Below, piece by piece: positions 1 through 55,571 of a stretch of DNA of 55,571 nt. The stretch comes from Escherichia phage vB_EcoM_JL1. The stretch lies in the sequence record OR791690.1; one strand, written 5' to 3'. Positions within the stretch are counted from its first letter, which is position 1. Every line of letters begins with the position of its first letter. A model generated the notes under the pieces. It did not search any database and was not told the origin of the DNA. It saw nothing but the letters and a program-made list of their open reading frames with translations. Both the position numbers and the translations under genes were made by a program.

Positions 1-324
1 GACTTCTTCTCTTCTTTCGAATTCTGATTGAAAGAAAGAAGCATGTCCAAAAGTTCCAATATTACAAAGTTATCTCCCGGCTTGTGGGTGGGCCTTTATA
101 ATAGGAGATGGAGCAATATTGTTGCAATTGAACATGCTTTAGTTGAAGAACAGTTTCGAATGGTAATCCTACTTCACACATGGTTGTTGGAACTTTGTCC
201 GGCCAAAGACAGGGAGTTCAATGATTGCCACATCATTACAACACTGTATGTTTAGTTGACATGCTGAAATGTTTCTAGAATGATTTCAACATGACATGCG
301 GAATACTTCTCCGTATTCTGTTAC

Positions 325-344
325 TTCACATCCAACTAATGTTA
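325..344 (-). promoter_or_regulatory. Phage-promoter-like conserved motif (copy P1)
   Basis: plus ttcacatccaactaatgtta; minus-strand consensus AACATTAGTTGGATTTGAAG shared by about 12 sites. Confidence 0.4.
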
Positions 345-416
345 CAGGTGGCTACAATATTGAAGCCAGCTCTAAGATTAATTGAAACAAGAAAAGGGAG
401 CCGAAGCTCCCAAATA

Positions 417-617
417 TCAGAACGGTATCTCTGTATCGAAATAACCAGAATTGTGCAAATATGCATGCAGTAATACATGCGACTCTTGTTTATATTCTGC
501 TAACAACTCTAAGAAGTCTTTAGTCTCCTCCACTGTAGGACGAGATAAGTTGCTCATGTCACAGGTGTGATGAGGGTTGAAACAGTTTTCGATTTGATTG
601 ATTTGCATGGTATTCAT
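417..617 (-). CDS. Small hypothetical protein (66 aa) ending in SSB-tip-like DTEIPF
   Basis: minus-strand ORF downstream of RNAP gene; C-terminus ...GYFDTEIPF resembles the E. coli SSB tip DDDIPF. Confidence 0.5.
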   Translation of the reverse strand: MNTMQINQIENCFNPHHTCDMSNLSRPTVEETKDFLELLAEYKQESHVLLHAYLHNSGYFDTEIPF

Positions 618-665
618 TATAAGTCTCCAAGTTTGTGGTCATCCTTGACCAATTAGTGTTACTGA

Positions 666-2780
666 TTATTGACAGAAGTAGTAAGCGTGTTCGCTCATCA
701 GAAGCTCTTCAGTTACGATGTTCTCATGATACATCTTGATGCCACCAAGTTGCTTAGACAGATTCTCGAATTGATTGTTGGTTACAAAGATTTCAACATA
801 TGCTGCACGAATAACTTCCATCATACGTGGAGCATCTGCCAAACAGCAACGGAAACAATCATGGATTGAAGTGAAGCCACGAAGACCAGCTTCTTTAGCT
901 TTAACTGCAACAGTACGAGCAACAAGTGCATCAATGCCCTGAATGTAGTTAACAACGAAAGTACGCTTGAATTCTTCTTTAGTTGGATTGGATTCACGAA
1001 TGGTCCAAGGCTTATTCTCCTGAATCTGACCAAAGATAACACGAGTTTGGGAGTCAACACGAATGCTGAATGCCTCACAGATTTCACGAGATGGGAAGCA
1101 AGGCTTCATTACAACCTGACCATCAGTGTGACGATATGTGATGTACTCTTTACCAAGTTCAACACAACGGTTGTATGCAGCATCAGCAGCTTTCTCAATG
1201 AACATGTTAATCTTAGCACCCAATGCGTTATGGATTGCTTCCACACACAGTTCAGCAAATGCCTCAGCTTTCTCCATAGGAATCTGGAGTGCTTCTGTCA
1301 TGTAGCTGATGAAGTCAGAAGAACCAGTCAATGCAGCTTTACCACCACCGTATTGGATAGCCATGTACGGAGTTTTGATAAACTTACGACCAGCTTTCGG
1401 ATTCAAGAATTCATCCATGATTTCAGGAGATGGTTTCATTGAAGACTTGTCCAGCAGCTTCAACAGTTCACGAAGACTCAACTGGTATGGGTCAGATGCT
1501 TTAGTCTCAGAATCAACCAGACCTGTTGCACGAGCCATTTCCATATTACCAGCAATGAATGCCAGATATTGAGTACCAGAACATTTAGCATCTAAGCCAA
1601 AGCCTACACGAGAATCACATTCACCTGTAGTCTCGAACTTGAACCAATCCAGAGCCAGACGAACATAAGTGAATGGCTTGGAAGGACGTTCAGCTTTAGG
1701 CATGTTCATCATGCGAGCAAGTGAACCAGCTGGATTCTGAGCAACATAAGTTAAACGCTTAGCACTGCACCATTCACCACCAGAAATATCTTCCAGCTCT
1801 GCCATAAACATGTTGTATGCAATGGTAGTAGAACCATCTTCGTTAAACTTCTTAACGATGTTCTCAACATTGTGAGAATACAAGCAACGAGCAAAGTCAG
1901 ATGATTGTGGGTTAGGACCAGCACATGCTACATGATACAGACGACCACGGTTATCAGCAAAGTAGTCAGAATACAGTGTGTCCTGATTCATCATTGCTAC
2001 AGCATTGTTCCAAACATGGAGTTCAGTCTGGATTGCTTCTGGCATCTGCAAGCCACCATAGGTACGTTGTTCAAGCATGGACTGAATGATGCGAACCATC
2101 TCAGTCTCCACATGGTACTCAGTATCTTGCAGGAATTCGATTGCAGCTTTCAGAGTTTTGGATGGCTTAACTTTGCCACCTTTAACGAAAGGCTTGCGAC
2201 GAGATTCAGATGTAACACGCTCAGTGAATGGCACTGCGGTATCTTTGGTTGTAACCAGCTCAACCCATGTGTCAGTTTGTTGGAACGACTTATCTTCGTT
2301 CATGGTGATGAAGCCAAAGTGCTTAGCCAGGCCAATGAGGTTGATAGCTGGGTCAACATAGTGCATTGCTTTCAAATCATTGTTGTAACGGTTGGCATCA
2401 GCAATTGAAGCAGAAGCCAGCTCAACCATTGCAATTGCAGGAACAACATCATCACGAGTGAATGAGGTCATCATCTTAAAGATTGCAAGAGCAGCAATAG
2501 CACAGGTCTGAGGTTGCATGTAGTTCTGTTTCTCTTTGGCACGATATACCAGAGCAGTGATAGCAGGGACAACGGATTTGATAGTTTGAGTTGAGATAGT
2601 TGCCATTTTGCGAGTCTCCAATTTAGTTTCGGTTTTAGTTTCGGATTGTGTAGCGGAGGTGATTTCATCTACCATCTGGTTGCAACGGTCCATCGTATCG
2701 AGCACGTCTTTCCAACCGTGGCCTTCTTCTTTTAAGCGAGCACCATCAGCAGCCAGTGTACGATATTCTTCATTAGTCAT
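666..2780 (-). CDS. T7-like single-subunit DNA-dependent RNA polymerase (704 aa, compact)
   Basis: motifs DAKCSGTQYLAF (T7 DGSCSGIQHFSA), KTPYMAIQYGGG, SIHDCF (T7 HDSFGT); ATG at 2780 with GGAGA RBS. Confidence 0.85.
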   Translation of the reverse strand: MTNEEYRTLAADGARLKEEGHGWKDVLDTMDRCNQMVDEITSATQSETKTETKLETRKMATISTQTIKSVVPAITALVYRAKEKQNYMQPQTCAIAALAIFKMMTSFTRDDVVPAIAMVELASASIADANRYNNDLKAMHYVDPAINLIGLAKHFGFITMNEDKSFQQTDTWVELVTTKDTAVPFTERVTSESRRKPFVKGGKVKPSKTLKAAIEFLQDTEYHVETEMVRIIQSMLEQRTYGGLQMPEAIQTELHVWNNAVAMMNQDTLYSDYFADNRGRLYHVACAGPNPQSSDFARCLYSHNVENIVKKFNEDGSTTIAYNMFMAELEDISGGEWCSAKRLTYVAQNPAGSLARMMNMPKAERPSKPFTYVRLALDWFKFETTGECDSRVGFGLDAKCSGTQYLAFIAGNMEMARATGLVDSETKASDPYQLSLRELLKLLDKSSMKPSPEIMDEFLNPKAGRKFIKTPYMAIQYGGGKAALTGSSDFISYMTEALQIPMEKAEAFAELCVEAIHNALGAKINMFIEKAADAAYNRCVELGKEYITYRHTDGQVVMKPCFPSREICEAFSIRVDSQTRVIFGQIQENKPWTIRESNPTKEEFKRTFVVNYIQGIDALVARTVAVKAKEAGLRGFTSIHDCFRCCLADAPRMMEVIRAAYVEIFVTNNQFENLSKQLGGIKMYHENIVTEELLMSEHAYYFCQ

Positions 2781-2842
2781 GATAAAGTCTCCAATTGATT
2801 ATGATTTAACTGAAACGGATTAGACTTGCGTAGCCTATTCAT

Positions 2843-2862
2843 AATCACAACCAACTAATGGT
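2843..2862 (-). promoter_or_regulatory. Phage-promoter-like conserved motif (copy P2), 63 nt upstream of RNAP start
   Basis: plus aatcacaaccaactaatggt. Confidence 0.4.
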
Positions 2863-2995
2863 GAGGTGAGCACACTACAACAGCGTACTCTGATTGCCTT
2901 TGACCTTGACTTATAAGCGAAGCGCCTAACTTGGTGTTGTTTGAAAGCCGATAGGCTGTAGGAAAAAGTTGGAGTAGGGACCGTATTTAAGTCCG

Positions 2996-3424
2996 ATAGG
3001 ACGTTGGGCTTCTGCTCCCCGGCCCCCTAAAAATAAAATTAATATTGCCACAATTCGAGTCTCGTTAATATCGAACAAATTCGAGTCTCCAATATCGTAA
3101 CAATTTTAGTCTCATTAATTCTGTAGCAATATTGAAAATAAAAAAAAAATTATAAAAAAATTATTTCATAGCCAGACAACTGTTCGAACAAATTTCGGCG
3201 AGATAACTTCTCCGAAGGAGATACAGCTGACCGACCATGAACGAATTACTATCCAGGTACAGTTGACCGACCATGTACCATTTGGTTTTGAACTTTACGC
3301 ATTCCTAATATTACTCTTAATATTGTAGCAATATTGGGAATAAATAAATATTTAATTTACTTGTCTTATTCTAGCTCAAAGAGAAACGACGCTAACGCAT
3401 CGAATCTCTTCTCGCATATAATCG
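2996..3424 (-). promoter_or_regulatory. AT-rich non-coding control region between nrdB and RNAP gene, with direct repeats
   Basis: no ORF; three ~25-bp direct repeats (GAGACTCGAATTTGTTCGATATT-like, minus strand), two copies of CATGGTCGGTCARCTGTAYCT, long A/T tract 3131..3170, repeated CAATATTGCTACA. Confidence 0.6.
3149..3179 (-). promoter_or_regulatory. Candidate sigma70-type promoter upstream of RNAP gene
   Basis: minus strand TTGTCT then about 18-19 nt then TATAAT; spacer slightly long. Confidence 0.3.
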
Positions 3425-4525
3425 TTAAAGCTCAAATCCGCCCAGAGCATTGGTGTCCACTTCGGAATCAATCTGCCCGACAAGGTACGAACTAATCTCC
3501 GTTTCTTGTGGAGCAACTTGTACAGCATCCGAATTCAACCATGCGTTAATCCAAGGAATCGGGTTAGTAGCACCTTTGAATGGAGCATCTAATCCAACTG
3601 CTTGCATACGAATATTCGTGATATATTCCACATATCCGCATAGAATTTGCTTGTTTAAGCCAATCATTGAGCCATCTTTGAACAAATAATCAGCCCAATC
3701 TTTCTCTTGTTGGGCCACATTTTCGAACATGAGTTGGCATTCTTGGCGGCATTCTTTAGCAATTTCGGCCATTTCTGGGTCATCAACACCACTTGCAAGA
3801 AGGTTCAGCATGTGTTGAGTTCCAGTCAAATGGAGTGCTTCATCACGAGCAATTAAGCGAATAATCTTGGCATTTCCTTCCATCAACTTGCGTTCAGCGA
3901 AGGCAAATGAACAAGCAAAACTGACATAAAAGCGGATTGCTTCTAGTGCATTAATGGACATGAGGCATAAATATAGCTTCTTCTTAAGCTCACGAATAGA
4001 AACCTCATCTTCATGCAGATGCCACATGGAAGTTAGGTGTTGAAGTTCGTCATAATATTGGGAGATGCCGATTGCACGCATTTTAATATGCTCATTCTCC
4101 ACAATTTCATCGAAAATGACACTCGGGTCTGTAACAATATTACGAATAATATGCGTGTAAGAACGGGAGTGAATTGTCTCTGAGAAGGACCAAGTTTCAA
4201 TCCAAGTTTCCAGCTCAGGAATGCTCACAATTGGCAGCAAAACTGTGGTTGGTCCACGTCCCTGAATGGAGTCAAGCAAGATTTGATAGCGCAAATTGCT
4301 GGTGAAGATGTGCTTCTCACATTCAGGCAGACCAGCATAGTCAATTCGGTCCTGGCTAACATCAACCTCTTCAGGTCGCCAAAAGAAAGATAACTGCTTT
4401 TCGATTAACTTCTCGAAGATGCTATACTTCTGTTGGTCATATCGAGCAACGTTAACGTTCTGACCAAAGAACATTGGCTCTAGTAGTTGGTTATTCTTGG
4501 TTTGTGAAAAGGTAGTGTAAGCCAT
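3425..4525 (-). CDS. nrdB: Ribonucleotide reductase class Ia small subunit (NrdB), host-like
   Basis: near-colinear with E. coli NrdB as I recall it ([11 protein letters not shown]..., [32 protein letters not shown]); no NrdA in the window. Confidence 0.9.
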
Positions 4526-9004: not shown

Positions 9005-9645
9005 TATTTCTCCGGAGGATAATCTTTGGAACCATAAACCAGGGCGATATTACCTCCAGCATCTTTAAGAGTAATACTAACCCCAACAGGTTTAAAGTTT
9101 GGAAGCATGTGTGCCATAAGAACTTTCTCAGGTACAGACAACATTTCATGAACAACATAATCCATTGTCTGAAATCCTTCGACGATTTGAAGTTTTAGTT
9201 CCCTTCCCACAACTAACTCAATGTACGTGATGATTTGTTCGATAGTGCAGTTGCCAGTTATCTTAATGATTCGGGCACGTATTGCAGCCTTCAACTGTGC
9301 ATCTGTTCGAATAAAGTCCCCAGAGTCCCTGTCGTAATCTGATTTCAGAATACCACCAACATTTGGGTTATTATCATCACCAGCAGAGAATGCACCTGGG
9401 TTGGCATAGAAGCCAAAGTACCCAAGTGCTGCGGCACCATGTATTACACGAGAAGCCCCTACAATATATGCAAGGTCATCAACCATGATGCCGAATGAAT
9501 CTGCCAAGTATCTATACTTAATTGAGTCGGTCATGGCTTGTTTAACTTCTGCAAACTCTTCCAAGAAAATGGAGATATACTTGCGAAGGTTTGGTGAAAG
9601 TGCATACTGCGAAAGCAGCATGTCTAAGCCATGTTTACCAGCCAT
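9004..9645 (-). CDS. Baseplate protein (Mu gp48 / P2 gpI-like by position)
   Basis: 213 aa; follows J-like gene in Mu-like order. Confidence 0.4.
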   Translation of the reverse strand: MAGKHGLDMLLSQYALSPNLRKYISIFLEEFAEVKQAMTDSIKYRYLADSFGIMVDDLAYIVGASRVIHGAAALGYFGFYANPGAFSAGDDNNPNVGGILKSDYDRDSGDFIRTDAQLKAAIRARIIKITGNCTIEQIITYIELVVGRELKLQIVEGFQTMDYVVHEMLSVPEKVLMAHMLPNFKPVGVSITLKDAGGNIALVYGSKDYPPEK

Positions 9646-9646
9646 A

Positions 9647-14296: not shown

Positions 14297-14369
14297 TGCA
14301 ATATACCTATTGAAATTAATACATATTCAACTAATGTAAAAGGAAAGCTGGGGATTTCTCCCCAACTCC

Positions 14370-19183: not shown

Positions 19184-19193
19184 TTATCGCACC

Positions 19194-23450: not shown

Positions 23451-24038
23451 TTAAGACTTCGGCGTAATAGCAATTTCTTTAGTTGCAGTCACGCTGGAGG
23501 TTGTTTTGTTTGTTGCCTTAATCGTGGCAGAGGTATCAGTGGTCGTCTCATTCAGAACAGTTACAGTACCATTTGCAGCCACAGAAACGCCAGTCACAGG
23601 AGGTGTAACAGTGTAGGCATAATCTGTTGCTGTAGAATTACCAAACTTGAACAGCTTGTCTACAGTTACAGTGGCATCAGCAGAAGACGCATCAGCCGTT
23701 ACAACTCCAGCTACAGCAGACACCGTAGGTGCAGGAGGTTTAGGCTTAATCGTAATCACTTTAGATGCAGTTACACCAGGCTCTGTTTTATTCGTTGCCT
23801 TGATTGTCGCAGAAGTGGCTGTAGTCGTTGCACTTAGTACAGTCACAGTGCCGTTTGCCGCCACAGAAACACCAGCTACAGCAGGAGTAACGGCGAAGTT
23901 GTAATCTGTTGCTGTAGAGTTCTCAAACGTAAACAGTTTGTCTACAGTTACAGTGGCATCAGATGCAGATGCGTCCGCAGTTACAGTACCTGCTACAGCA
24001 GACACCGCAGGAGCTGGAGGTGGCGTTACGGCTTTGGG
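23451..24038 (-). CDS. -1 frame C-terminal extension with two Ig-like (Big_2-type) repeats, reached by programmed frameshift
   Basis: -1 frame open from slippery site 24032..24038 to TAA at 23451; encodes tandem ~90-aa repeats (SAVAGTVTADASASDATVTVDKLF...). Confidence 0.55.
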   Translation of the reverse strand, partial: PKAVTPPPAPAVSAVAGTVTADASASDATVTVDKLFTFENSTATDYNFAVTPAVAGVSVAANGTVTVLSATTTATSATIKATNKTEPGVTASKVITIKPKPPAPTVSAVAGVVTADASSADATVTVDKLFKFGNSTATDYAYTVTPPVTGVSVAANGTVTVLNETTTDTSATIKATNKTTSSVTATKEIAITPKS

Positions 24039-24508: not shown

Positions 24509-25528
24509 TTATAAAGAGTTGAAGCGTTCTAAACGACGTTTGTTAGCTTCTTCGGAAATAGAAACTTTAGGTTTACGAGCTTCTGAATCTTTCTTAGCAG
24601 CGAATTGCATAGACTGATTCAGGGCATCTCCCAAAGTAATGGAATCGCAATCTTCAAGAGCTGCATCGAAACGGGCGGAGATATAGTCTTCGCTCTTATC
24701 GCTGAAATCCTTGTCATGCAATTTATTAACTACAGCCAACTTAATTTCTGCATCGGTCTTGCCGGAGAAATCGAGGTTGGAGAACTCGTCGCCAAGACGT
24801 GCCACATCAACAAGCAGCGCTGTACGAGCAACTACACGTTTGTCTACCTCAGCCTGAATGGCTTCATCGGATAGTCGTGCAGTTTCTGCATCAGCAAGTT
24901 TCTGCTCAAGGACACTAATCTTGTCAAGCGCTGCATCACGCTCTGCTTCAACAACATCAAAGGTTGCCTTATCAACAATGGCAATCTCCTCACCAGAGTC
25001 ACCAATGCGAGTAGTCTGAGCACGACCACGAACAACAATTGCAGCATGGTTAGGGATAATGCGAACTTTATCGAAGTCAGCTTCATCATCTTCTGATACA
25101 GCCAGTTCAGCATTATGGCCCAAGGAGATTTGGTCAACACCAGAATCAACTAATCGAATAGCTTGCTCGTCATTCAAAACGATTGATGCAGCCAAGAAAG
25201 AACCGTCTGCAACTGGACGCCCTTCGATGAACCCTTTCTGGAGTTCTTTGTTGTTCTTGATGTTAACATCATTTTTCGGATGGCCGATAGTAACCGGAAT
25301 TGAACGACAACCTTCGATGGTTGCTTCGTCAAATAATACTTCCGGCTTGGTACGAACACGGCAAATAGATTCTGGGTCCAGATGTTTTGCAATTTCACCA
25401 AGTTCTTTCGCCTTGTACAGCATGATGCCAGTACGAGCGATGGTGCATTCTGCAATCATTTCGCCAGAGTCACGTAAACGACGGGTCGTTAAAGTAGCCT
25501 TGTCGTTCAACAAAACTACTTCATTCAC
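24509..25528 (-). CDS. Prohead protease / scaffolding protein (putative fusion); start uncertain
   Basis: ORF open to 25750 but overlaps portal by ~200 nt; candidate starts GTG 25528 or ATG 25459; acidic coiled-coil C-terminal half. Confidence 0.45.
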   Translation of the reverse strand: MNEVVLLNDKATLTTRRLRDSGEMIAECTIARTGIMLYKAKELGEIAKHLDPESICRVRTKPEVLFDEATIEGCRSIPVTIGHPKNDVNIKNNKELQKGFIEGRPVADGSFLAASIVLNDEQAIRLVDSGVDQISLGHNAELAVSEDDEADFDKVRIIPNHAAIVVRGRAQTTRIGDSGEEIAIVDKATFDVVEAERDAALDKISVLEQKLADAETARLSDEAIQAEVDKRVVARTALLVDVARLGDEFSNLDFSGKTDAEIKLAVVNKLHDKDFSDKSEDYISARFDAALEDCDSITLGDALNQSMQFAAKKDSEARKPKVSISEEANKRRLERFNSL

Positions 25529-29110: not shown

Positions 29111-29296
29111 TTAATCACAATCCACTAATGGTTGAGTTTGCACGGGATTGATGCGAATGATGCTGCCTAAACCAGAATCGGCCTTTAAATACAGGCGGTT
29201 TAGTGGCATATATGAATCACAGATAGGACATTGCTGCGTTATGAAATCATCTTCTGCAATTTCATAGTGGCAGTTAGGACATTGTATTGTGCGCAT
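29111..29296 (-). CDS. Zinc-ribbon protein (61 aa)
   Basis: CPNC ... CPIC pairs. Confidence 0.45.
   Translation of the reverse strand: MRTIQCPNCHYEIAEDDFITQQCPICDSYMPLNRLYLKADSGLGSIIRINPVQTQPLVDCD
29113..29132 (-). promoter_or_regulatory. Phage-promoter-like conserved motif (copy P3), ~22 nt upstream of terminase ATG
   Basis: plus aatcacaatccactaatggt; overlaps 3' end of upstream small ORF. Confidence 0.4.
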
Positions 29297-34165: not shown

Positions 34166-34438
34166 TTAGTCGACCTGCAACATAGCAAGTCGGAAGTCAT
34201 ATCCAACTAATGCTTCGGACAGCTCTTCAAATGAAGACGTTGCCGAAATTAAAGTTTGGATGTTTTTGAATGTCTCATCATTGAATGCTTGAGACTGTGT
34301 GTCGGACGAATAGAATACTTTGTCCTTAATCTTTTCAAGGAACGCCATTACAGCGTCCTTTGCGAGAACTTCGGAATCGGTAGCAAACATGTGGTGCTCT
34401 GATTCCTGTACATCAAAAATAGAATATACAGTTTTCAT
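34166..34438 (-). CDS. Hypothetical acidic protein
   Basis: 90 aa; start overlaps polymerase stop. Confidence 0.45.
   Translation of the reverse strand: MKTVYSIFDVQESEHHMFATDSEVLAKDAVMAFLEKIKDKVFYSSDTQSQAFNDETFKNIQTLISATSSFEELSEALVGYDFRLAMLQVD
34196..34215 (-). promoter_or_regulatory. Phage-promoter-like conserved motif (copy P4, inside upstream ORF)
   Basis: plus gtcatatccaactaatgctt, ~61 nt upstream of 34135. Confidence 0.3.
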
Positions 34439-36372
34439 TAGTGAATCTCTGCGTAGTTATCACCGAACTGCACATCACATGCACAATCACGGTTAAGTTT
34501 AAGTTCTTTGTTGGTTCGGTCCATTGCCTCATTAAGCAAGTCCGTCCACAAATCACGGAAGCCTTTCTTAACTTGGAGAATCAATTCATCATGGAATTGC
34601 CCGGACAGAAGTGGGTCACAGCCCCAACGCTCATTACAAATTGCAATGATGTTGTTACACCAAATATCAAACACATATGCACCAGTACCCTGACACAATG
34701 TGGAGAAGCGGTCTTTCTCTGTGCGCAATGAATACCAGAATTTGTTTACTGGATTCTGTTGCCACATCTGACCATCAACTGTAATAACTTTGGTGTTTGC
34801 AGCAATCTCTTTAATGGACCAGTTCAAGTCCCAATATGCTTTATGCAGTCGTGCAGCAGTAGTCTGGTCACAGCCAGCAGAGCGGGCTACAGTTGGTATG
34901 CCAGCGCCATACTGACAAGCATAGTTTGTGGTCTTAAACATTGGACGTTGTTTACACTTCTTAATTCCGTCCTTGTGGTCCTGAGATTCTTGTTCAGTAA
35001 TAAATCCACCAATTACGCCGATTGCAAGGTGAGCATCATAGTCTGGTGCCAACTGCTTCTTAACGTATTCAGGGTCATACATCCACTGGAAGTGGTGCTT
35101 ACAACGGTCTTCCAGTGAGCACAAGTCAGAGCCTAACTGTTCATAGTCTTCACGCCACGCTTCCAGCATTGAACGCAGTTCTTCACCGCCAAATACACGA
35201 ATAGAAGGGAGGTTAACAAGTTCGCGATGTTTAAGGCGTAAAGTATTGGTAAGGCCACCACATCGTGCAGTAAGGTATCCGTCTTCATCGACGTCGCGAA
35301 GAAAACCGTTAACAACAGACAGACGGTGTTTATACACGCCCATCCCAATAAGATGTTGAATACCAGAGTCGGGGTTTCTTTCCGCCAGCTTATGCAAGCT
35401 CGGACATATTTCAGGATTGCCATCTTCATCCTTCACAGTGATTTGTGGAATCTGGCGGGTTTCACCTGTTTCCTTATTACGGTCAAACTTAAAGGTTTCT
35501 GGTTCCCAACCCAGGCTGAACAACCAATCTTTGATTTGAACATGTGAACCAGCATTAGGCTTCTTATAACCTTTAAGAACTTTGATAGCCAGGTCTGGGT
35601 CTTTCCAGTCCAAACCGTTCGCATCACAAATAGCCTTCCACTTAATTCCAGTGGAAGACAGTTGCCCGTTCATCTTGTGGCATTTAGCTGGACGGGTTTT
35701 GATAACATATTCCGGAACACGCGGCATTGATGCTTCCAACGCGTCCGTCTTCTCTTTAATCATTGGCTCCAGCTTGGCCTTAAATGCCAATGCCTTCTCA
35801 ATGTTCAGCTTCCAGCGAGTACGTTGTTGAATAACTTGCTGACGAGCTTTTGTCATCAGGTATTCAACGAAGCGTTTAACTTCGCTAGGAGATTTATAAA
35901 TCTTCAAGAGTTGGATATATTGCTGTTCCCACAGCTTCAACTGAATCTTGCAGTCTTCCATCACACGATGGTTGTACTCTTCTTGAGTTTGATTTTCCCA
36001 ATCTTCAATGACTGGTTTTGGCACACCAAACTCTTCGCCGTAACCTTCCAGGCCGTGCTTAACACGACGAGGTTGCAGATACCAACTGATAAACAAAGTA
36101 TCAATCAGTGTACATTTTGAAACGTCGTAACCAAGGAACCTCAGTGCTTCAAAGTCAAAGGTTGCGCCGTTGTGCATGATTAATGTTGGGCCTGTATCCA
36201 GAAATGCCTGGATAGATTTTCTGTCGGTCCACTCTATCACAGTTTCTTCACGAGTCAGAACATCAATATACCCGATGTTGTGAAGACGCGGTGCAGCTTG
36301 CTTACGCATTTGCTCCAACAGGCCAGTTGTTTCAATGTCACTGGCATACATATTTTCCCAAGGATACAACAC
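34438..36372 (-). CDS. DNA polymerase, family A (T7-like)
   Basis: exo motif DIETTGL; KTTNYACQYGAG; QFHDE. Confidence 0.85.
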   Translation of the reverse strand: MLYPWENMYASDIETTGLLEQMRKQAAPRLHNIGYIDVLTREETVIEWTDRKSIQAFLDTGPTLIMHNGATFDFEALRFLGYDVSKCTLIDTLFISWYLQPRRVKHGLEGYGEEFGVPKPVIEDWENQTQEEYNHRVMEDCKIQLKLWEQQYIQLLKIYKSPSEVKRFVEYLMTKARQQVIQQRTRWKLNIEKALAFKAKLEPMIKEKTDALEASMPRVPEYVIKTRPAKCHKMNGQLSSTGIKWKAICDANGLDWKDPDLAIKVLKGYKKPNAGSHVQIKDWLFSLGWEPETFKFDRNKETGETRQIPQITVKDEDGNPEICPSLHKLAERNPDSGIQHLIGMGVYKHRLSVVNGFLRDVDEDGYLTARCGGLTNTLRLKHRELVNLPSIRVFGGEELRSMLEAWREDYEQLGSDLCSLEDRCKHHFQWMYDPEYVKKQLAPDYDAHLAIGVIGGFITEQESQDHKDGIKKCKQRPMFKTTNYACQYGAGIPTVARSAGCDQTTAARLHKAYWDLNWSIKEIAANTKVITVDGQMWQQNPVNKFWYSLRTEKDRFSTLCQGTGAYVFDIWCNNIIAICNERWGCDPLLSGQFHDELILQVKKGFRDLWTDLLNEAMDRTNKELKLNRDCACDVQFGDNYAEIH

Positions 36373-42272: not shown

Positions 42273-42295
42273 CTTTCCACATCCAACTAATGTTT
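42273..42295 (-). promoter_or_regulatory. Phage-promoter-like conserved motif (copy P5)
   Basis: plus ctttccacatccaactaatgttt. Confidence 0.4.
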
Positions 42296-42322
42296 CAGAA
42301 CTGCTCTGATTCGACAAACGAC

Positions 42323-42998: not shown

Positions 42999-43325
42999 TT
43001 AGTGGCCTTGTAGGATACGTTTGTTCGCAGTTTCTGCGTCGATTCCCAAATCAACTAATGTCACCAAGCACTGCGAAATCCGCTCTTGCGCAGCTTTCTC
43101 CAGAATTTGGTATTTTTCGTTGTCAACGCCTAACACATTCTTGGCATGAATGAGTGTAGCCATCAGACCGTGCCCCAAAGCAACAGCTTGCATTGCCTGG
43201 AGTTCAAAGTTAATTGTGATGCCAGCGAGTTCGTGCTCTTTCTGGATAATCTCAATCAACTCTTCTTTAGATTTGTCCTGTAAGTTCAAAATGGAACTCC
43301 GTAAATCGGTTGGTTTGTTGTCCAA
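42999..43325 (-). CDS. Hypothetical protein
   Basis: 108 aa. Confidence 0.45.
   Translation of the reverse strand: MDNKPTDLRSSILNLQDKSKEELIEIIQKEHELAGITINFELQAMQAVALGHGLMATLIHAKNVLGVDNEKYQILEKAAQERISQCLVTLVDLGIDAETANKRILQGH
43045..43062 (-). promoter_or_regulatory. Phage-promoter-like motif (copy P6, inside upstream ORF)
   Basis: plus cccaaatcaactaatgtc. Confidence 0.3.
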
Positions 43326-44157: not shown

Positions 44158-44222
44158 ACTTTGTAGAACGAATCGAACGTTCTCACACGTCTTGGTACCA
44201 GACGGACTACCTAGTTACAAAG
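44158..44222 (-). ncRNA. tRNA-like minihelix (D-arm-less)
   Basis: acceptor CTTTGTA/TACAAAG, T-arm GAACG-TTCGATT-CGTTC, one internal hairpin; 65 nt; 20 nt downstream of motif P7. Confidence 0.3.
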
Positions 44223-44241
44223 CTCTTATCTGATGTTGTTT

Positions 44242-44260
44242 CTTCAATTCCAACTAATGT
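44242..44260 (-). promoter_or_regulatory. Phage-promoter-like conserved motif (copy P7)
   Basis: plus cttcaattccaactaatgt. Confidence 0.4.
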
Positions 44261-44271
44261 AATTTTGTGCT

Positions 44272-44362
44272 GTACTCTCTTCCCAAGTTGTCCAGACTTG
44301 GTTGTTTGAGGCTGCGCTTATTGCAGTGGACTTCCTCTACAATTGCTAGTGGAAAAGAGTAC
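44272..44362 (-). ncRNA. Candidate structured small RNA between motifs P8 and P7
   Basis: 12-bp inverted repeat arms (gtactctcttcc / ggaaaagagtac) enclosing ~67 nt with an internal hairpin; no ORF. Confidence 0.25.
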
Positions 44363-44379
44363 AGACAGAATTACACTAA

Positions 44380-44399
44380 TTCAATTCCAATTAATGTTT
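44380..44399 (-). promoter_or_regulatory. Phage-promoter-like conserved motif (copy P8)
   Basis: plus ttcaattccaattaatgttt. Confidence 0.35.
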
Positions 44400-44465
44400 C
44401 AGAATTATTCCAATATTCCAAACAAAAAGAATAATAAGAATAAATTAAATAAATGAAGAAAGTGC

Positions 44466-44495: not shown

Positions 44496-44520
44496 GCCTT
44501 TCTTCCCTAAGTGGTCAGAA

Positions 44521-44539
44521 TCAAATCCCACTAATGTTT
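44521..44539 (-). promoter_or_regulatory. Phage-promoter-like conserved motif (copy P9)
   Basis: plus tcaaatcccactaatgttt. Confidence 0.4.
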
Positions 44540-44606
44540 CAGACTAAAGCCGAAGGCCAATGCGAGCACAAAACCCGCTTGGCACTTCGAAGAAACCCGC
44601 CTGGAA

Positions 44607-48295: not shown

Positions 48296-48315
48296 CTTCA
48301 AATCCAACTAATGTT
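48296..48315 (-). promoter_or_regulatory. Phage-promoter-like conserved motif (copy P10)
   Basis: plus cttcaaatccaactaatgtt; shares ~30 nt with P11. Confidence 0.45.
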
Positions 48316-48354
48316 AGATTAATCAGGAACACTCAATGAATGCTCCTTGTTAAT

Positions 48355-48666: not shown

Positions 48667-48685
48667 CTTTATTCTCCAATTATTA

Positions 48686-48704
48686 CTCACAATCAACTAA
48701 TGTT
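48686..48704 (-). promoter_or_regulatory. Phage-promoter-like conserved motif (copy P11), ~20 nt upstream of gene start
   Basis: plus ctcacaatcaactaatgtt. Confidence 0.45.
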
Positions 48705-48744
48705 AGATTAATCATGGACACCTACAGGAGATGCCCATTGTTAA

Positions 48745-51960: not shown

Positions 51961-52052
51961 GTGACACAGCAAGTGCCGAAGAACTACAATGATTAGCTTG
52001 GAGACATAATCTCTCTAAAATCTGTCACAGAATTTACAGAGATTTGGTCTTA

Positions 52053-52070
52053 TTCACATGCAACTAATCG
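52053..52070 (-). promoter_or_regulatory. Degenerate copy of phage-promoter-like motif (P12)
   Basis: plus ttcacatgcaactaatcg. Confidence 0.25.
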
Positions 52071-52259
52071 AAATAATGACGCGCCAATCTAATACAATAT
52101 TACCCCGCCAAATGAGATAAATTGCAGCAGATTGGCACGAACATTTGTAGCACTGGAGTTCTGTAGAAGCAGCCAACTTGTTTGTATTTGGCACAAACAG
52201 TTGAATACCTATGTACAGAAAACCGACCATTTAATTAATAAACTAAATGATTTAAATAA

Positions 52260-52520: not shown

Positions 52521-52992
52521 AATATTTGTTGCTCAAAATCGGGGCGGCAAACGATATTAAATTCGATGCTTTGTCCGACTTCTTCTCTTCTTTCGAATTC
52601 TGATTGAAAGAAAGAAGCATGTCCAAAAGTTCCAATATTACAAAGTTATCTCCCGGCTTGTGGGTGGGCCTTTATAATAGGAGATGGAGCAATATTGTTG
52701 CAATTGAACATGCTTTAGTTGAAGAACAGTTTCGAATGGTAATCCTACTTCACACATGGTTGTTGGAACTTTGTCCGGCCAAAGACAGGGAGTTCAATGA
52801 TTGCCACATCATTACAACACTGTATGTTTAGTTGACATGCTGAAATGTTTCTAGAATGATTTCAACATGACATGCGGAATACTTCTCCGTATTCTGTTAC
52901 TTCACATCCAACTAATGTTACAGGTGGCTACAATATTGAAGCCAGCTCTAAGATTAATTGAAACAAGAAAAGGGAGCCGAAGCTCCCAAATA

Positions 52993-53193
52993 TCAGAACG
53001 GTATCTCTGTATCGAAATAACCAGAATTGTGCAAATATGCATGCAGTAATACATGCGACTCTTGTTTATATTCTGCTAACAACTCTAAGAAGTCTTTAGT
53101 CTCCTCCACTGTAGGACGAGATAAGTTGCTCATGTCACAGGTGTGATGAGGGTTGAAACAGTTTTCGATTTGATTGATTTGCATGGTATTCAT
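52993..53193 (-). CDS. Copy of 417..617 (small protein ending DTEIPF)
   Basis: sequence identity with 417..617. Confidence 0.5.
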   Translation of the reverse strand: MNTMQINQIENCFNPHHTCDMSNLSRPTVEETKDFLELLAEYKQESHVLLHAYLHNSGYFDTEIPF

Positions 53194-53241
53194 TATAAGT
53201 CTCCAAGTTTGTGGTCATCCTTGACCAATTAGTGTTACTGA

Positions 53242-55356
53242 TTATTGACAGAAGTAGTAAGCGTGTTCGCTCATCAGAAGCTCTTCAGTTACGATGTTCT
53301 CATGATACATCTTGATGCCACCAAGTTGCTTAGACAGATTCTCGAATTGATTGTTGGTTACAAAGATTTCAACATATGCTGCACGAATAACTTCCATCAT
53401 ACGTGGAGCATCTGCCAAACAGCAACGGAAACAATCATGGATTGAAGTGAAGCCACGAAGACCAGCTTCTTTAGCTTTAACTGCAACAGTACGAGCAACA
53501 AGTGCATCAATGCCCTGAATGTAGTTAACAACGAAAGTACGCTTGAATTCTTCTTTAGTTGGATTGGATTCACGAATGGTCCAAGGCTTATTCTCCTGAA
53601 TCTGACCAAAGATAACACGAGTTTGGGAGTCAACACGAATGCTGAATGCCTCACAGATTTCACGAGATGGGAAGCAAGGCTTCATTACAACCTGACCATC
53701 AGTGTGACGATATGTGATGTACTCTTTACCAAGTTCAACACAACGGTTGTATGCAGCATCAGCAGCTTTCTCAATGAACATGTTAATCTTAGCACCCAAT
53801 GCGTTATGGATTGCTTCCACACACAGTTCAGCAAATGCCTCAGCTTTCTCCATAGGAATCTGGAGTGCTTCTGTCATGTAGCTGATGAAGTCAGAAGAAC
53901 CAGTCAATGCAGCTTTACCACCACCGTATTGGATAGCCATGTACGGAGTTTTGATAAACTTACGACCAGCTTTCGGATTCAAGAATTCATCCATGATTTC
54001 AGGAGATGGTTTCATTGAAGACTTGTCCAGCAGCTTCAACAGTTCACGAAGACTCAACTGGTATGGGTCAGATGCTTTAGTCTCAGAATCAACCAGACCT
54101 GTTGCACGAGCCATTTCCATATTACCAGCAATGAATGCCAGATATTGAGTACCAGAACATTTAGCATCTAAGCCAAAGCCTACACGAGAATCACATTCAC
54201 CTGTAGTCTCGAACTTGAACCAATCCAGAGCCAGACGAACATAAGTGAATGGCTTGGAAGGACGTTCAGCTTTAGGCATGTTCATCATGCGAGCAAGTGA
54301 ACCAGCTGGATTCTGAGCAACATAAGTTAAACGCTTAGCACTGCACCATTCACCACCAGAAATATCTTCCAGCTCTGCCATAAACATGTTGTATGCAATG
54401 GTAGTAGAACCATCTTCGTTAAACTTCTTAACGATGTTCTCAACATTGTGAGAATACAAGCAACGAGCAAAGTCAGATGATTGTGGGTTAGGACCAGCAC
54501 ATGCTACATGATACAGACGACCACGGTTATCAGCAAAGTAGTCAGAATACAGTGTGTCCTGATTCATCATTGCTACAGCATTGTTCCAAACATGGAGTTC
54601 AGTCTGGATTGCTTCTGGCATCTGCAAGCCACCATAGGTACGTTGTTCAAGCATGGACTGAATGATGCGAACCATCTCAGTCTCCACATGGTACTCAGTA
54701 TCTTGCAGGAATTCGATTGCAGCTTTCAGAGTTTTGGATGGCTTAACTTTGCCACCTTTAACGAAAGGCTTGCGACGAGATTCAGATGTAACACGCTCAG
54801 TGAATGGCACTGCGGTATCTTTGGTTGTAACCAGCTCAACCCATGTGTCAGTTTGTTGGAACGACTTATCTTCGTTCATGGTGATGAAGCCAAAGTGCTT
54901 AGCCAGGCCAATGAGGTTGATAGCTGGGTCAACATAGTGCATTGCTTTCAAATCATTGTTGTAACGGTTGGCATCAGCAATTGAAGCAGAAGCCAGCTCA
55001 ACCATTGCAATTGCAGGAACAACATCATCACGAGTGAATGAGGTCATCATCTTAAAGATTGCAAGAGCAGCAATAGCACAGGTCTGAGGTTGCATGTAGT
55101 TCTGTTTCTCTTTGGCACGATATACCAGAGCAGTGATAGCAGGGACAACGGATTTGATAGTTTGAGTTGAGATAGTTGCCATTTTGCGAGTCTCCAATTT
55201 AGTTTCGGTTTTAGTTTCGGATTGTGTAGCGGAGGTGATTTCATCTACCATCTGGTTGCAACGGTCCATCGTATCGAGCACGTCTTTCCAACCGTGGCCT
55301 TCTTCTTTTAAGCGAGCACCATCAGCAGCCAGTGTACGATATTCTTCATTAGTCAT
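53242..55356 (-). CDS. Copy of T7-like single-subunit RNA polymerase gene
   Basis: identical to 666..2780. Confidence 0.85.
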   Translation of the reverse strand: MTNEEYRTLAADGARLKEEGHGWKDVLDTMDRCNQMVDEITSATQSETKTETKLETRKMATISTQTIKSVVPAITALVYRAKEKQNYMQPQTCAIAALAIFKMMTSFTRDDVVPAIAMVELASASIADANRYNNDLKAMHYVDPAINLIGLAKHFGFITMNEDKSFQQTDTWVELVTTKDTAVPFTERVTSESRRKPFVKGGKVKPSKTLKAAIEFLQDTEYHVETEMVRIIQSMLEQRTYGGLQMPEAIQTELHVWNNAVAMMNQDTLYSDYFADNRGRLYHVACAGPNPQSSDFARCLYSHNVENIVKKFNEDGSTTIAYNMFMAELEDISGGEWCSAKRLTYVAQNPAGSLARMMNMPKAERPSKPFTYVRLALDWFKFETTGECDSRVGFGLDAKCSGTQYLAFIAGNMEMARATGLVDSETKASDPYQLSLRELLKLLDKSSMKPSPEIMDEFLNPKAGRKFIKTPYMAIQYGGGKAALTGSSDFISYMTEALQIPMEKAEAFAELCVEAIHNALGAKINMFIEKAADAAYNRCVELGKEYITYRHTDGQVVMKPCFPSREICEAFSIRVDSQTRVIFGQIQENKPWTIRESNPTKEEFKRTFVVNYIQGIDALVARTVAVKAKEAGLRGFTSIHDCFRCCLADAPRMMEVIRAAYVEIFVTNNQFENLSKQLGGIKMYHENIVTEELLMSEHAYYFCQ

Positions 55357-55571
55357 GATAAAGTCTCCAATTGATTATGATTTAACTGAAACGGATTAGA
55401 CTTGCGTAGCCTATTCATAATCACAACCAACTAATGGTGAGGTGAGCACACTACAACAGCGTACTCTGATTGCCTTTGACCTTGACTTATAAGCGAAGCG
55501 CCTAACTTGGTGTTGTTTGAAAGCCGATAGGCTGTAGGAAAAAGTTGGAGTAGGGACCGTATTTAAGTCCG

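Follow-up and report, generated by a model that had tools for sequence, protein, structure and literature searches.

Identity, N-terminal architecture and likely promoter of the small T7-type RNA polymerase encoded in the terminal repeat of Escherichia phage vB_EcoM_JL1

The 55,571-nt sequence of Escherichia phage vB_EcoM_JL1 (OR791690.1; hereafter the window, meaning the whole stretch of DNA that was analysed) carries near one end an open reading frame for a single-subunit RNA polymerase (RNAP) of only 704 aa. Such a gene raises the question of whether the protein is complete, where it has been shortened, and which promoter it would serve. The ORF, gene 1 of Carltongylesvirus, occupies 666..2780(-), exactly as in the initial annotation, and begins with ATG; an identical second copy lies at 53242..55356(-). 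The shortfall against T7 RNAP, which had been put at 180 aa, comes to 179 (883 - 704). A missed N-terminal part was looked for and none was found: an in-frame TAA at 2801..2799, 19 nt 5' of the M1 ATG, closes the frame, and only 215 nt lie between that ATG and the physical genome end.

The catalytic motifs claimed for the protein bear scrutiny. Pfam RNA_pol (PF00940) matches residues 381–679 with 69.5 bits (cut-off 22), a match that spans only positions 75–369 of the 448 in the profile, and PHROG 414 'RNA polymerase' matches residues 40–703 (E = 1.2e-97). T7 residues D537, R627, K631, Y639, G640 and H811-D812 are paired with D397, R465, K469, Y477, G478 and H640-D641 (hhalign, 98.4% to T7); in an alignment of 47 family members D397, R465, K469, Y477, H640 and D641 are invariant and G478 nearly so. 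These residues span 858..1592(-), with D397 at 1592..1590, R465/K469/Y477 at 1388..1350 and H640-D641 at 863..858. An AF2 model is confidently folded (pLDDT 89.1, pTM 0.81), and Foldseek ranks chains of T7 RNAP highest against it (E = 1.4e-19, probability 1.00, TM about 0.55), followed by the yeast and human mitochondrial RNAPs. By Pfam and PHROG domain, catalytic residues and right-hand fold alike, the protein falls in the T7-like single-subunit class. It has a complete palm and fingers catalytic apparatus and, in the model, a T7-RNAP-like fold, and is predicted to be active.

By sequence identity this is an already known protein, 96–99% identical to annotated 'RNA polymerase' genes of Carltongylesvirus (Chaseviridae). 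Using tblastn, identity is 99.0% to Shigella phage 2KOFFS, 98.9% to Bp10 and 96.4% to Mangalitsa, and 99.5% to ST32 over residues 59–704. Chaseviridae have been defined by the RNAP gene since 2008, and the gene, its likeness to T7 and its place in a repeat of about 3 kb are all published. As a genomic feature it is ordinary: a recognised family has it as its hallmark gene, and dozens of near-identical genomes carry it annotated. The literature searched contained no biochemical, transcriptomic or N-terminal proteomic study of any chasevirus RNAP, which makes activity, promoter use, start sites and isoforms matters of prediction in what follows. Taken as a whole, the locus very probably encodes the Carltongylesvirus gene-1 T7-type RNAP, placed in the terminal repeat, extended at its N-terminus, reduced in its N-terminal domain (NTD) and served by a cognate promoter of about 20 bp; the product would be the T7-type single-subunit DNA-dependent RNA polymerase that is gene 1 of the phiEcoM-GJ1/ST32/Mangalitsa group.

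The size of the protein needs to be restated. The enzyme is indeed a small one of the T7 type, but 704 aa is the length of a clade-specific extended form; the conserved enzyme has about 646 aa, starting at M59 (666..2606(-), ATG at 2606..2604), and this ancestral form is the one annotated in ST32, PYps23T and phiEcoM-GJ1. Nor is compactness unusual within the family, as all Chaseviridae and about 120 metagenomic clusters at 50% identity are similar in size; the norm for Chaseviridae is about 630–650 aa, and most of 114 homolog clusters fall between 626 and 665 aa. The conserved core, as delimited by these comparisons, is about 237 aa shorter than T7 RNAP. The additional 58 codons form a 174-nt in-frame insertion (2607..2780(-)) confined to a small E. 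coli/Shigella clade and flanked, in nucleotide alignment, by a duplicated TTGGAGACT..ATG. The extension is absent from 113/114 homolog clusters and is carried by 12 phage records, fused to the RNAP every time; Mangalitsa, SKA49, Bp10 and 2KOFFS are annotated with the 704-aa form, and ST32, PYps23T and phiEcoM-GJ1, which lack the insertion, have a form of 646–648 aa. On this comparative evidence the extreme N-terminus of the 704-aa form is an add-on, not a remnant, and the clade gained the 58 codons in frame through an insertion that duplicated the Shine-Dalgarno (SD)-ATG module.

Both starts are equipped for translation. M1 is preceded by GGAG at 2789..2792(-) with an 8-nt spacer, which is part of the duplicated TTGGAGACT module, and M59 retains its own GGAG at 2616..2619(-), inside the 704-aa ORF, with a 9-nt spacer. 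The M59 SD is identical in 6/6 carriers examined, and Table 2 of the ST32 paper lists TGGAGACttacaaATG. Conceivably, only the 646-aa protein is made; the 58 codons would be a leader that goes untranslated or is open by chance, and the 704 aa an annotation artefact of choosing the longest ORF. The family norm, the annotation of ST32, PYps23T and phiEcoM-GJ1 from the equivalent of M59 and the perfect SD kept at that codon all favour such a reading, as does the AF2 model, in which the well-folded core starts at about residue 61 after a disordered linker (residues 43–60); moreover, in 4HA13 this slot is taken by a separate mini-ORF that ends in a stop of its own. We nevertheless consider it unlikely, as the SD of M1 is equally good and the 58 codons are open in 6/6 carriers. 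These codons hold 10 synonymous and 7 non-synonymous variants and no stops in the RNAP frame, against 3/14 and 2/15 with 15–36 stops in the other two frames, an excess of synonymous change that rests on 17 variants in six closely related carriers. By this pattern of substitution, the added codons behave as protein-coding sequence subject to purifying selection in the RNAP frame. In addition, as no stop codon closes the stretch, whatever is translated from M1 must be a fusion. Two isoforms would thus be possible, one of 704 aa from M1 and one of 646 aa from the retained internal SD and M59.

The extension itself offers few clues from homology. It has no Pfam match and only a weak PHROG match (phrog_14095, E = 0.008), no free-standing homolog was found in phage genomes at E <= 1, and it shows no sequence relationship to the 4HA13 mini-ORF. 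AF2 models residues 1–42 as a two-helix hairpin with only moderate confidence (pLDDT 65–73), and values fall below 50 in the linker. The extension may be a tethered helical hairpin, flexible and accessory in role, not catalytic.

The initial annotation had also placed the gene between two control regions, and each of these proved to hold one copy of a 22-nt motif. Because a mismatch-tolerant k-mer search of the whole genome was swamped by codon-periodic words, the search was restricted to non-coding sequence, in which the motif is the top word of an unbiased search. The 22-nt/20-bp motif AACATTAGTTGGATgTGAA scores 14 bits or more at 14 sites on the transcribed strand and at 0 on the other, with 0.13 expected. 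The weight matrix scores the very sites used to build it, a circularity only partly offset by leave-one-out scores (12.5–30.7), by the strand asymmetry and by tests in other genomes. A tandem word upstream of the RNAP gene, GAGACTCGAAT, was considered as a genome-wide control motif and rejected: it has 20 matches with up to 2 mismatches against 12.95 expected, and 4/100 shuffles reach 20; it repeats only locally, close to the repeat boundary. The genome also holds a second repeated element, GCATGTAAtATTG, with palindromes.

Two of the sites flank the gene. P1 (TCACCATTAGTTGGTTGTGATT, 25.5 bits; 2843..2864(-), also 55419–55440) precedes the M1 ATG by 62 nt, and its core does not vary among Mangalitsa, ST32, PYps23T and 4HA13, while the flanks diverge. 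P2 (GTAACATTAGTTGGATGTGAAG, 32 bits; 324..345(-), also 52900–52921) is the best match in the genome and lies in the repeat 3' of the RNAP gene, of a 66-aa ORF (417..617(-); PHROG 20790, function not assigned; Mangalitsa, ST32 and 4HA13 have annotated homologs) and of a terminator-like hairpin, GGGAGCTTCGGCTCCC followed by a T-run, at 386..411(-). Syntenic copies of P2 are present in 4HA13 (2702), PP101 (2467) and Myduc (2201). The remaining sites follow in the direction of transcription at 52052..52073(-) (24 bits), 48685..48706(-) (26 bits) and 48296..48317(-) (30 bits), then as a tandem three at 44519..44540(-) (27 bits), 44379..44400(-) (25 bits) and 44242..44263(-) (27 bits), and at 43043..43064(-) (21.5 bits) and 42275..42296(-) (28.5 bits; syntenic in 4HA13 (12632), PP101 (14249) and Myduc (14702)). 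One site falls in the final 51 nt of an ORF (34195..34216(-), 25 bits) and another just upstream of a 681-aa ORF (29113..29134(-), 22 bits), where the syntenic site of 4HA13 precedes the terminase large subunit. The last two are at 25138..25159(-) (19 bits) and, before the first baseplate gene, at 14319..14340(-) (25 bits; syntenic in 4HA13 (42327), PP101 (42392) and Myduc (41609)).

The 20-bp motifs noted at the outset are real. Beyond the window, 4HA13, PP101 and Myduc have 10–13 forward against 0–1 reverse sites, syntenically placed, and a Hafnia prophage has 10 against 0. In VPs20 (Nefertitivirinae) the motif is absent and a different, forward-only motif is found instead; the specificity loop of its polymerase is also different, a co-variation that rests on one Nefertitivirinae genome and about 7 sites. 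The authors of the PP101 report independently hypothesised eight RNAP promoters in 2020, with the consensus given in a figure only (PMC6989608). A full-text literature search for ATTAGTTGG returned unrelated papers only, and chaseviruses are absent from two recent surveys that cover T7-like RNAPs and their promoters (PMC11880802, PMC11475235).

We regard the motif sites as the likely cognate promoters of the RNAP, as judged by comparative genomics. The 22-nt CATTAGTTGG motif might instead be another strand-specific signal, for RNA processing, for binding of a phage regulator or host factor, or for pausing or termination. The ICTV profile of 2022 lists the Chaseviridae RNAP promoters as unidentified (PMC12842549), the GCATGTAAtATTG element, with its own palindromes, is a reminder that repeats need not all be RNAP promoters, and a copy directly upstream of the RNAP gene is atypical for T7, in which gene 1 is transcribed by the host. 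We rate this alternative as improbable, since the sites are strictly co-oriented, mostly intergenic and 5–100 nt before gene blocks, one of them comes immediately after the terminator hairpin, and synteny extends across four genera and a prophage. Further, a length of about 20 bp with no dyad symmetry is typical of single-subunit RNAP promoters, unlike operators, the motif has no sigma-70 -10/-35 structure, and where RNAP and specificity loop are divergent, another motif, whose CCCACTAG core is T7-like, takes its place. As cognate promoters, the sites would share the form 5'-(c/g)t(a/g)AACATTAGTTGGAT(g/t)TGAA-3', about 20 bp long, and the 14 predicted per genome (at least 14 bits) would all be co-oriented with the genes. 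P1 would give positive autoregulation, and P2, after the hairpin terminator, would start transcripts that leave the repeat and enter the early region. The first round of RNAP expression would have to depend on host RNAP; no consensus sigma-70 promoter was found on the minus strand of the 215-bp leader, and sigma-70 consensus scans of 1–3600 and 49500–55571 gave fewer promoter-like sites than shuffled sequence.

The placement of the gene in an interval present at both window ends holds without a mismatch: the first copy (1..2995, the right end in conventional orientation) is identical to the second (52577..55571) at 2,995/2,995 positions, so that the sequence consists of a unit length of 52,576 bp plus an exact 2,995-bp direct terminal repeat. 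Exact end repeats are also expected from circular or concatemeric assembly, and phiEcoM-GJ1 was first described as circularly permuted, as cited in the PYps23T report (PMC8762354). It is very unlikely, though, that the duplication is an artefact of assembly or circular permutation and the RNAP gene present once per genome. In Mangalitsa and 4HA13, PhageTerm has the termini starting at TTAAA(A)TACGG, no more than 5 nt from the repeat boundary in the window, and the PhageTerm repeats that cover the RNAP gene and begin within this distance measure 3,234 bp in Mangalitsa, 3,120 bp in 4HA13 and 3,202 bp in Myduc. Repeats of 2.3–3.2 kb over the gene have been reported for Mangalitsa, 4HA13, Myduc, Y2 and PM1, the repeat of PYps23T was shown experimentally by restriction mapping, ligation-PCR and direct sequencing (PMC8762354), and the ICTV profile describes non-permuted Chaseviridae genomes with terminal repeats of about 3 kb (PMC12842549). 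The window has the linear genome of 52–56 kb, with repeats of about 3 kb containing the RNAP gene, that marks Chaseviridae. Its position inside the repeat gives the RNAP gene two identical copies per packaged genome.

The gene order is also that of the family, with essentially all genes on one strand, the RNAP first and the ribonucleotide reductase (RNR) beta subunit last in the ORF map, an order likewise described for ST32. A 366-aa ORF (3425..4525) directly upstream of the repeat corresponds in position to the annotated RNR beta subunit of PYps23T. At the physical genome end, alignment of relatives shows a near-invariant leader (2865..2995(-), beginning CGGACTTAAATACGGTCCC), which is probably a DNA-level end or packaging signal because it lies upstream of P1. 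No tRNA genes or Rfam families were found in the window.

The inferred loss from the N-terminal promoter-binding domain agrees with the domain searches. RPOL_N (PF14700) is recognised in T7 (E = 1.2e-34) and in Syn5 (2.2e-15, residues 8–257), and gives no match at E <= 10 in the 646-aa form and three other family members. The hhalign match to T7 starts at query residue 211, opposite T7 317, and in a representative search conventional phage RNAPs of 780–850 aa align only from profile position about 150–170 onward. By these alignments the NTD is strongly reduced, to about 150 residues against about 316 in T7. The shortening is not N-terminal alone, which amends the initial account: the thumb is about 38 and one fingers insertion about 35 residues shorter than in T7 (hhalign). 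Global hhalign sets M59 opposite T7 residue ~98 and leaves no counterpart for the AT-rich recognition loop (T7 93–101). An NTD-only hhalign against T7 is not significant (probability 1%, E = 0.055), so the loss of this loop and of subdomain H is an inference; the T7-side profile was shallow, because among the matches listed for it the T7 homologs were only close relatives (at least 66% identity).

Two promoter-contacting elements may have been kept. A beta-hairpin at residues 156–168 (2277..2315(-); AF2 strands E158–160 and E165–168) is a candidate equivalent of the T7 intercalating hairpin, about 9 residues shorter; it is placed opposite T7 220–267 in both global and local hhalign, by itself not significantly (the T7 hairpin is at about 230–245). 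A second beta-hairpin, at residues about 571–597 (990..1070(-)), is aligned by hhalign to the T7 specificity loop (739–770); with the AF2 model taken in, the hairpin extends over residues 564–595, opposite T7 ~741–767. Cleopatravirinae share its sequence, which differs in the group at about 30% identity, the subfamily that has the other motif. Alignments and model together suggest an NTD made up of a five-helix bundle and a short beta-hairpin, which would lack counterparts of T7 1–97, including the AT-rich recognition loop, and of most of the refolding subdomain H, and would retain the shortened intercalating-hairpin candidate along with the specificity-loop hairpin. That the protein is a degenerate, inactive T7-like remnant whose promoter-binding domain was lost is hardly credible, despite the lack of a recognisable RPOL_N domain and the partial PF00940 coverage, given that the catalytic residues are all kept, with no variation among 47 diverse members, that 123 clusters at 50% identity share the architecture, that RNAP is one of the core genes that define Chaseviridae (ICTV profile, PMC12842549) and that the AF2 model is confidently folded.

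More tentatively, and with considerable doubt, chasevirus RNAPs might be minimal promoter-specific members of the T7 superfamily (about 72 kDa) that dispense with the AT-rich loop and subdomain H, with the N-terminus as a recurrent point of accretion and the 704- and 646-aa isoforms as a built-in regulatory pair. Additions at the N-terminus are seen as the fused 58-aa module here, as the free-standing mini-ORF in 4HA13 and as possible 100–270-aa additions in metagenomic relatives. If loop and subdomain are indeed lost, promoter recognition would proceed via a short upstream element and conserved initially transcribed or downstream bases (CATTAGTTG and then GATgTGAA), and the transition from initiation to elongation and the formation of the RNA exit channel must differ from T7. 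Such an enzyme could show which parts of the T7 NTD promoter melting and the elongation switch really need, and a 72-kDa orthogonal polymerase–promoter pair would hold practical interest, both for expression systems and for RNA synthesis. The motif, being strand-exclusive, syntenic and co-varying with the loop, makes the promoter question directly testable.

An N4-type virion RNAP was considered and rejected on size (646–704 aa) and because the closest sequence and structure are those of T7, not N4. N4 mini-vRNAP, the 1,106-aa domain of gp50, belongs only distantly to the T7-like single-subunit superfamily, and its NTD has diverged greatly; it is much larger, packaged in the virion and directed to hairpin promoters on single-stranded DNA. 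It was not among the PDB-chain sequence matches (T7 RNAP only) or the best 50 Foldseek matches (T7 and mitochondrial enzymes), and one 4HA13 supplementary file, possibly not the proteome table, contains no mention of 'RNA polymerase', a weak sign against virion packaging. The RNAP of cyanophage Syn5, at 779 aa, is a smaller T7-type enzyme that has been characterised and uses a short promoter of about 15 bp. It resembles the present protein as a shortened T7-type phage enzyme that would drive middle and late transcription, and differs in keeping a recognisable RPOL_N. Despite the label of 'large' T7-like RNAP given to it in the literature, the chasevirus enzyme is about 130 residues smaller than Syn5 RNAP and about 240 smaller than T7 RNAP.

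T7 RNAP itself (883 aa; PDB 1CEZ, 1QLN, 1MSW, 3E2E) shares the palm, fingers and thumb fold, the catalytic residues, a candidate specificity-loop hairpin and a C-terminal aromatic tail (YYFCQ here, FAFA in T7), and probably also the use of one promoter type of about 20 bp across a unidirectionally transcribed genome. Identity to it is only about 15–19%, T7 1–97 and most of subdomain H (153–205) appear to have no counterpart here, and the gene lies in the long terminal repeat of a myovirus, with a phage-type motif upstream instead of strong host promoters. The gene-1 RNAPs of Carltongylesvirus and Chaseviridae, by comparison, have the same first-gene place in a repeat of about 3 kb, the same leader and the same motif. 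With phiEcoM-GJ1 gp01, ST32 gp1, Mangalitsa gp1 and 4HA13 gp2 at 96–99% identity, over the full length or residues 59–704, there is no substantive difference from the Carltongylesvirus enzymes, and the window represents another isolate of the group.

The open reading frame at 666..2780 on the minus strand begins with ATG and has 704 codons, with the place and length claimed in the initial annotation. It lies, as had also been claimed, within a 2,995-bp interval present at both ends of the window: bases 1–2,995 equal 52577–55571 with 0 mismatches, which implies a unit genome of 52,576 bp, with the RNA polymerase (RNAP) gene occurring again, unchanged, at 53242..55356. Pfam RNA_pol (PF00940) scores 69.5 bits on the protein (cut-off, 22), and PHROG 414 'RNA polymerase' gives E = 1e-97. 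By tblastn against phage genomes, it was found at 96–99% identity, annotated as 'RNA polymerase', in Shigella phage 2KOFFS and Escherichia phages Bp10, SKA49 and Mangalitsa, and its residues 59–704 were found at 99.5% identity in ST32, Bp7, flopper and others. The matching phages are classified as Chaseviridae; Cleopatravirinae; Carltongylesvirus, and the protein is unambiguously the gene-1 RNAP of Chaseviridae. Repeats annotated using PhageTerm span this gene in Mangalitsa (3,234 bp), Escherichia phage 4HA13 (3,120 bp) and Proteus phage Myduc (3,202 bp), and the terminal repeat of PYps23T was demonstrated by experiment (PMC8762354). As the Mangalitsa and 4HA13 records start with TTAAA(A)TACGG no more than 5 nt from the repeat boundary of the window, the window repeat represents genuine terminal redundancy. 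Relative to the conventional orientation, the window is reverse-complemented, and nearly all its ORFs are on the minus strand. The polymerase is an unremarkable member of an established family, and since public records and papers already contain the gene, its likeness to T7 RNAP, its location within the repeat and the 704-aa annotation, we considered the feature already known. One further record, PP952070.1 ('Staphylococcus phage Pel53'; host: Staphylococcus hyicus), is a 53.7-kb genome with an RNAP 92.7% identical to the E. coli-type carltongylesvirus enzyme, and its host assignment looks doubtful.

Profile comparison with T7 RNAP (98.4% probability) aligned residues 211–674 with T7 residues 317–845, pairing D397, R465, K469, Y477 and H640-D641 with T7 D537, R627, K631, Y639 and H811-D812. 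None of these residues varies among 47 diverse family members, so the catalytic motifs noted from the sequence are indeed present. About 38 residues are absent from the thumb and ~35 from the fingers insertion (T7 ~586–620). A Foldseek search of the PDB with the AF2 model (pLDDT 89.1, pTM 0.81) placed T7 RNAP chains on top (E = 1.4e-19), followed by mitochondrial RNAPs. In its polymerase domain, its catalytic residues and its fold, the protein is a T7-like single-subunit RNAP; a canonical N-terminal domain is not recognised. The 646-aa form of the enzyme (starting at M59) has ~150 residues before residue 211, vs ~316 in T7, and Pfam RPOL_N, which matches T7 (1e-34) and Syn5 (2e-15), matched 0/4 chasevirus RNAPs even at E <= 10. 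The reduced N-terminal domain proposed in the initial annotation is thus upheld, and two of the checks it suggested, structure prediction and T7 alignment, agree on a small enzyme with a T7-type fold and a short N-terminal domain. A missed N-terminal exon, which would have made the protein full length, is not borne out, as an in-frame TAA (2801..2799) shuts the frame 19 nt upstream of the start. A forced global alignment set M59 opposite T7 residue ~98, suggesting that T7 residues 1–97 (including the AT-rich recognition loop) have no counterpart and that most of subdomain H is deleted. When N-terminal domains alone were compared, the sole local similarity was between residues 151–189 and T7 220–267, the intercalating-hairpin segment (E = 0.055, not significant alone). 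This stretch is 9 residues shorter than that of T7 and coincides with an AF2 hairpin (158–168), which may be the counterpart of the T7 segment. When 1.84 billion representatives were searched exhaustively, 123 clusters (50% identity) matched at E <= 1e-30, with full-length members mostly of 610–760 aa; conventional 780–850-aa phage RNAPs reached only E ~1e-25 to 1e-28 and aligned only from profile position ~150–170, corresponding to their residue ~255–295.

The description of the 704-aa protein as unusually compact held in part: the enzyme is small, with a core of 646 aa, but by comparison with its homologs 704 aa is the extended form and not the compact one. The N-terminal 58 residues are present only in the query's own cluster (1/114 homolog clusters), and homologs at <=83% identity begin at ~residue 59, most of them being 626–665 aa long. 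DNA alignment identified a clean 174-nt in-frame insertion that the window and Mangalitsa have and ST32 and PYps23T lack. A module present in two copies encloses it, as TTGGAGACTTTATC-ATGACTA where the longer ORF starts and as TTGGAGACTCGCAAA-ATGGCAA at the former start. Because the module is duplicated around the insertion, the ancestral start M59 (ATG 2606..2604, minus) and its Shine-Dalgarno GGAG (2619..2616, minus; 9-nt spacer) survive inside the longer ORF, and this internal pair is identical in 6/6 carriers. The insertion occurs in 12 phage records, each time fused to RNAP, and a phage-genome search found no free-standing homolog of it. Among the six carriers compared, variants in the 58 codons are 10 synonymous vs 7 non-synonymous with 0 stops in the RNAP frame, against 3/14 and 2/15 and many stops in the other two frames. 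This pattern argues that the extension is translated and, as it has no stop of its own, must read into the polymerase as a fusion; we infer that both 704-aa and 646-aa products, of ~79 and ~72 kDa, can be made. AlphaFold predicts a two-helix hairpin for residues 1–42 (pLDDT 65–73) and a disordered linker for 43–60 (pLDDT <50), with the confidently folded enzyme starting at ~residue 61. In 4HA13, the same slot holds a free-standing acidic 55-aa ORF (194–361) between duplicated SD-ATGACT modules; as its sequence is unrelated to the 58-aa extension, the RNAP-start junction is a recurrent insertion point for small cassettes. Separately, five metagenomic members of the compact clade, P0082 (901 aa), P0249 (845 aa), P0238 (779 aa), P0236 (757 aa) and P0243 (725 aa), match the family profile only from residue ~100–270 on and may have extra N-terminal sequence, either as gene-call artefacts or as common N-terminal accretion in the clade.

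Counting exact words on the transcribed strand yielded ACATTAGTTGGA, with near-matches at ~13 intergenic sites and information over ~20 nt, (c/g)t(a/g)AACATTAGTTGGAT(g/t)TGAA. A 22-nt matrix at >=14 bits finds 14 sites on the transcribed strand and 0 on the other (leave-one-out scores, 12.5–30.7 bits), where 0.13 sites are expected from Markov-1 random sequences using the genome's dinucleotide transitions; the 20-bp motifs of the initial annotation are therefore real. Non-coding sequence makes up only ~11% of the genome, yet most sites are intergenic or in the last 51 nt of an ORF. The two control regions said to flank the polymerase correspond to sites at 2864..2843 (minus), 62 nt ahead of the ATG of RNAP, and at 345..324 (minus), which scores higher than the former and is the best in the genome (GTAACATTAGTTGGATGTGAAG). 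The latter lies past RNAP, a 66-aa ORF and a hairpin-plus-T-run (411..386, minus), still within the repeat. In an unbiased non-coding word search, CATTAGTTG was the top word in the window and 4HA13 and the top 10-mer in Myduc. A ~650-nt stretch (43960–44607, minus) without a convincing ORF, tRNA or Rfam family carries three tandem promoter-like motifs at 44540, 44400 and 44263 (spacing, 140 and 137 nt) and may yield short non-coding transcripts or very small peptides.

The matrix also finds 10–13 forward vs 0–1 reverse sites in 4HA13, PP101 and Myduc (RNAPs 66–76% identical), in syntenic positions on both sides of RNAP and ahead of ssb, the terminase large subunit and the first baseplate gene. 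An integrated element in Hafnia alvei GCA_002206365.2, whose RNAP is 53% identical, has CATTAGTTG 10 times forward and 0 reverse, only within the element. The motif is absent from Vibrio phage VPs20 (Nefertitivirinae; RNAP ~35% identical), which has a different forward-only intergenic motif, GGGCTCG-N4-5-TCGCCCACTAgaaaTTGGTa, in ~7 copies (2319, 2353, 2474, 3556, 5108, 8239 and 20998). Its CCCACTAG core recalls T7-group CTCACTATAG, making it a candidate promoter of the Nefertitivirinae RNAP. The motif difference is tracked by the specificity-loop region, which reads SIRVDsqTR-VIFGq...KPWtIRE in Cleopatravirinae vs SIRYTQNTI-ISFGSQ...TGLTVSD in the ~30%-identity group. Considering strict orientation, position, synteny, length, absent dyad symmetry and polymerase co-variation together, the motif is best read, with good probability, as the cognate promoter of RNAP. 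This idea is not wholly new, as eight RNAP promoters were hypothesised in PP101 (Lukianova et al; PMC6989608); the literature searched yielded no transcription-start or biochemical data on a chasevirus RNAP.

The repeat thus supplies two copies of a T7-type RNAP gene with all its catalytic residues, with one motif ahead of the gene and the strongest behind it. Under the cognate-promoter reading, the enzyme would transcribe the unidirectional genome from ~14 predicted promoters. The upstream motif would give positive feedback, and the downstream terminator-promoter pair would restart transcription leaving the repeat for the early region. At the physical left end, the RNAP copy has only 215 bp upstream, and this leader contains no consensus sigma-70 promoter. 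Its first ~130 nt (2865–2995 = 55441–55571, minus), at the physical genome end, are nearly invariant in the window, Mangalitsa, ST32, PYps23T and 4HA13, more conserved than the adjoining coding sequence, and hold CCTATCGG twice; given this conservation and its place upstream of the promoter-like motif, the segment probably acts at the DNA level, as an end or packaging signal. The RNAP copy at the right end is downstream of the whole co-directional genome, and first expression could come from read-through or from host promoters that escaped recognition in the AT-rich region 3050–3340.

Two other conserved elements adjoin the repeat. Just past its inner boundary (52576/52577), a GCATGTAAT cluster at 52260–52560 (minus) contains GCATGTAAtATTG in ~7 co-oriented copies, among which lie the palindrome AATATTGTGACAATATT (52527–52511, 52288–52272) and AATATTGCTACA half-sites. 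It occupies a ~1.2-kb gene-poor stretch whose position is kept in Mangalitsa, 4HA13, PP101 and Myduc, and TGCATGTAA(T) is the top non-coding 9-mer in Myduc; the cluster could represent host promoters of the extended -10 type together with operators, or else iterons of an origin. At 3040–3340 (minus), 50–350 bp outside the 2995/2996 boundary, three tandem ~26-bp repeats with GAGACT(C/A)(G/A)AAT (3113–3053) lie between the two arms of the inverted pair AATATTGCTACA / TGTGGCAATATT, with a long A/T run before them. This element is kept in ST32 and PYps23T and does not fit sigma-70 spacing; it may be where terminase or end processing acts, or where a regulator binds. Elsewhere, the structural-gene region has a 282-bp tandem duplication (23458–24021; copies 77% identical), mostly in a 184-aa ORF (23451..24005, minus).

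The Hafnia alvei locus (contig NJFP02000002.1, 2778075–2800021; genes 6881–11947) encodes its 648-aa RNAP in a 4.8-Mb bacterial contig, in the order host genes, integrase (DUF6538/Phage_integrase), holin, hydrolase, RNAP and small ORFs including ArdA, and appears to be an integrated (temperate) relative of the phage family, which has been described as strictly lytic. Large Pseudomonas contigs (P0099, P0108) also encode RNAPs of this kind. In 4HA13, the DNA polymerase gene (18904–21493) is annotated as two joined pieces around an HNH endonuclease ORF (20431–20868), which suggests an intron or intein-type interruption; its apparent positional equivalent in the window, a 644-aa ORF (34438..36372, minus), is uninterrupted.

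Overall, the initial observation is confirmed and its interpretation partly supported. Three points are absent from the literature searched: a minimal-size single-subunit RNAP without a recognisable promoter-binding domain, an SD-ATG-duplicating insertion as the source of the 704-aa form, and a promoter consensus that holds across genera and co-varies with the polymerase. The residual interest is moderate and lies in an uncharacterised minimal T7-type polymerase-promoter pair. Among known systems, the chasevirus enzyme would work like T7 RNAP with a core form ~237 residues smaller, and this core is also ~130 residues smaller than Syn5 RNAP (779 aa), which has an RPOL_N match.
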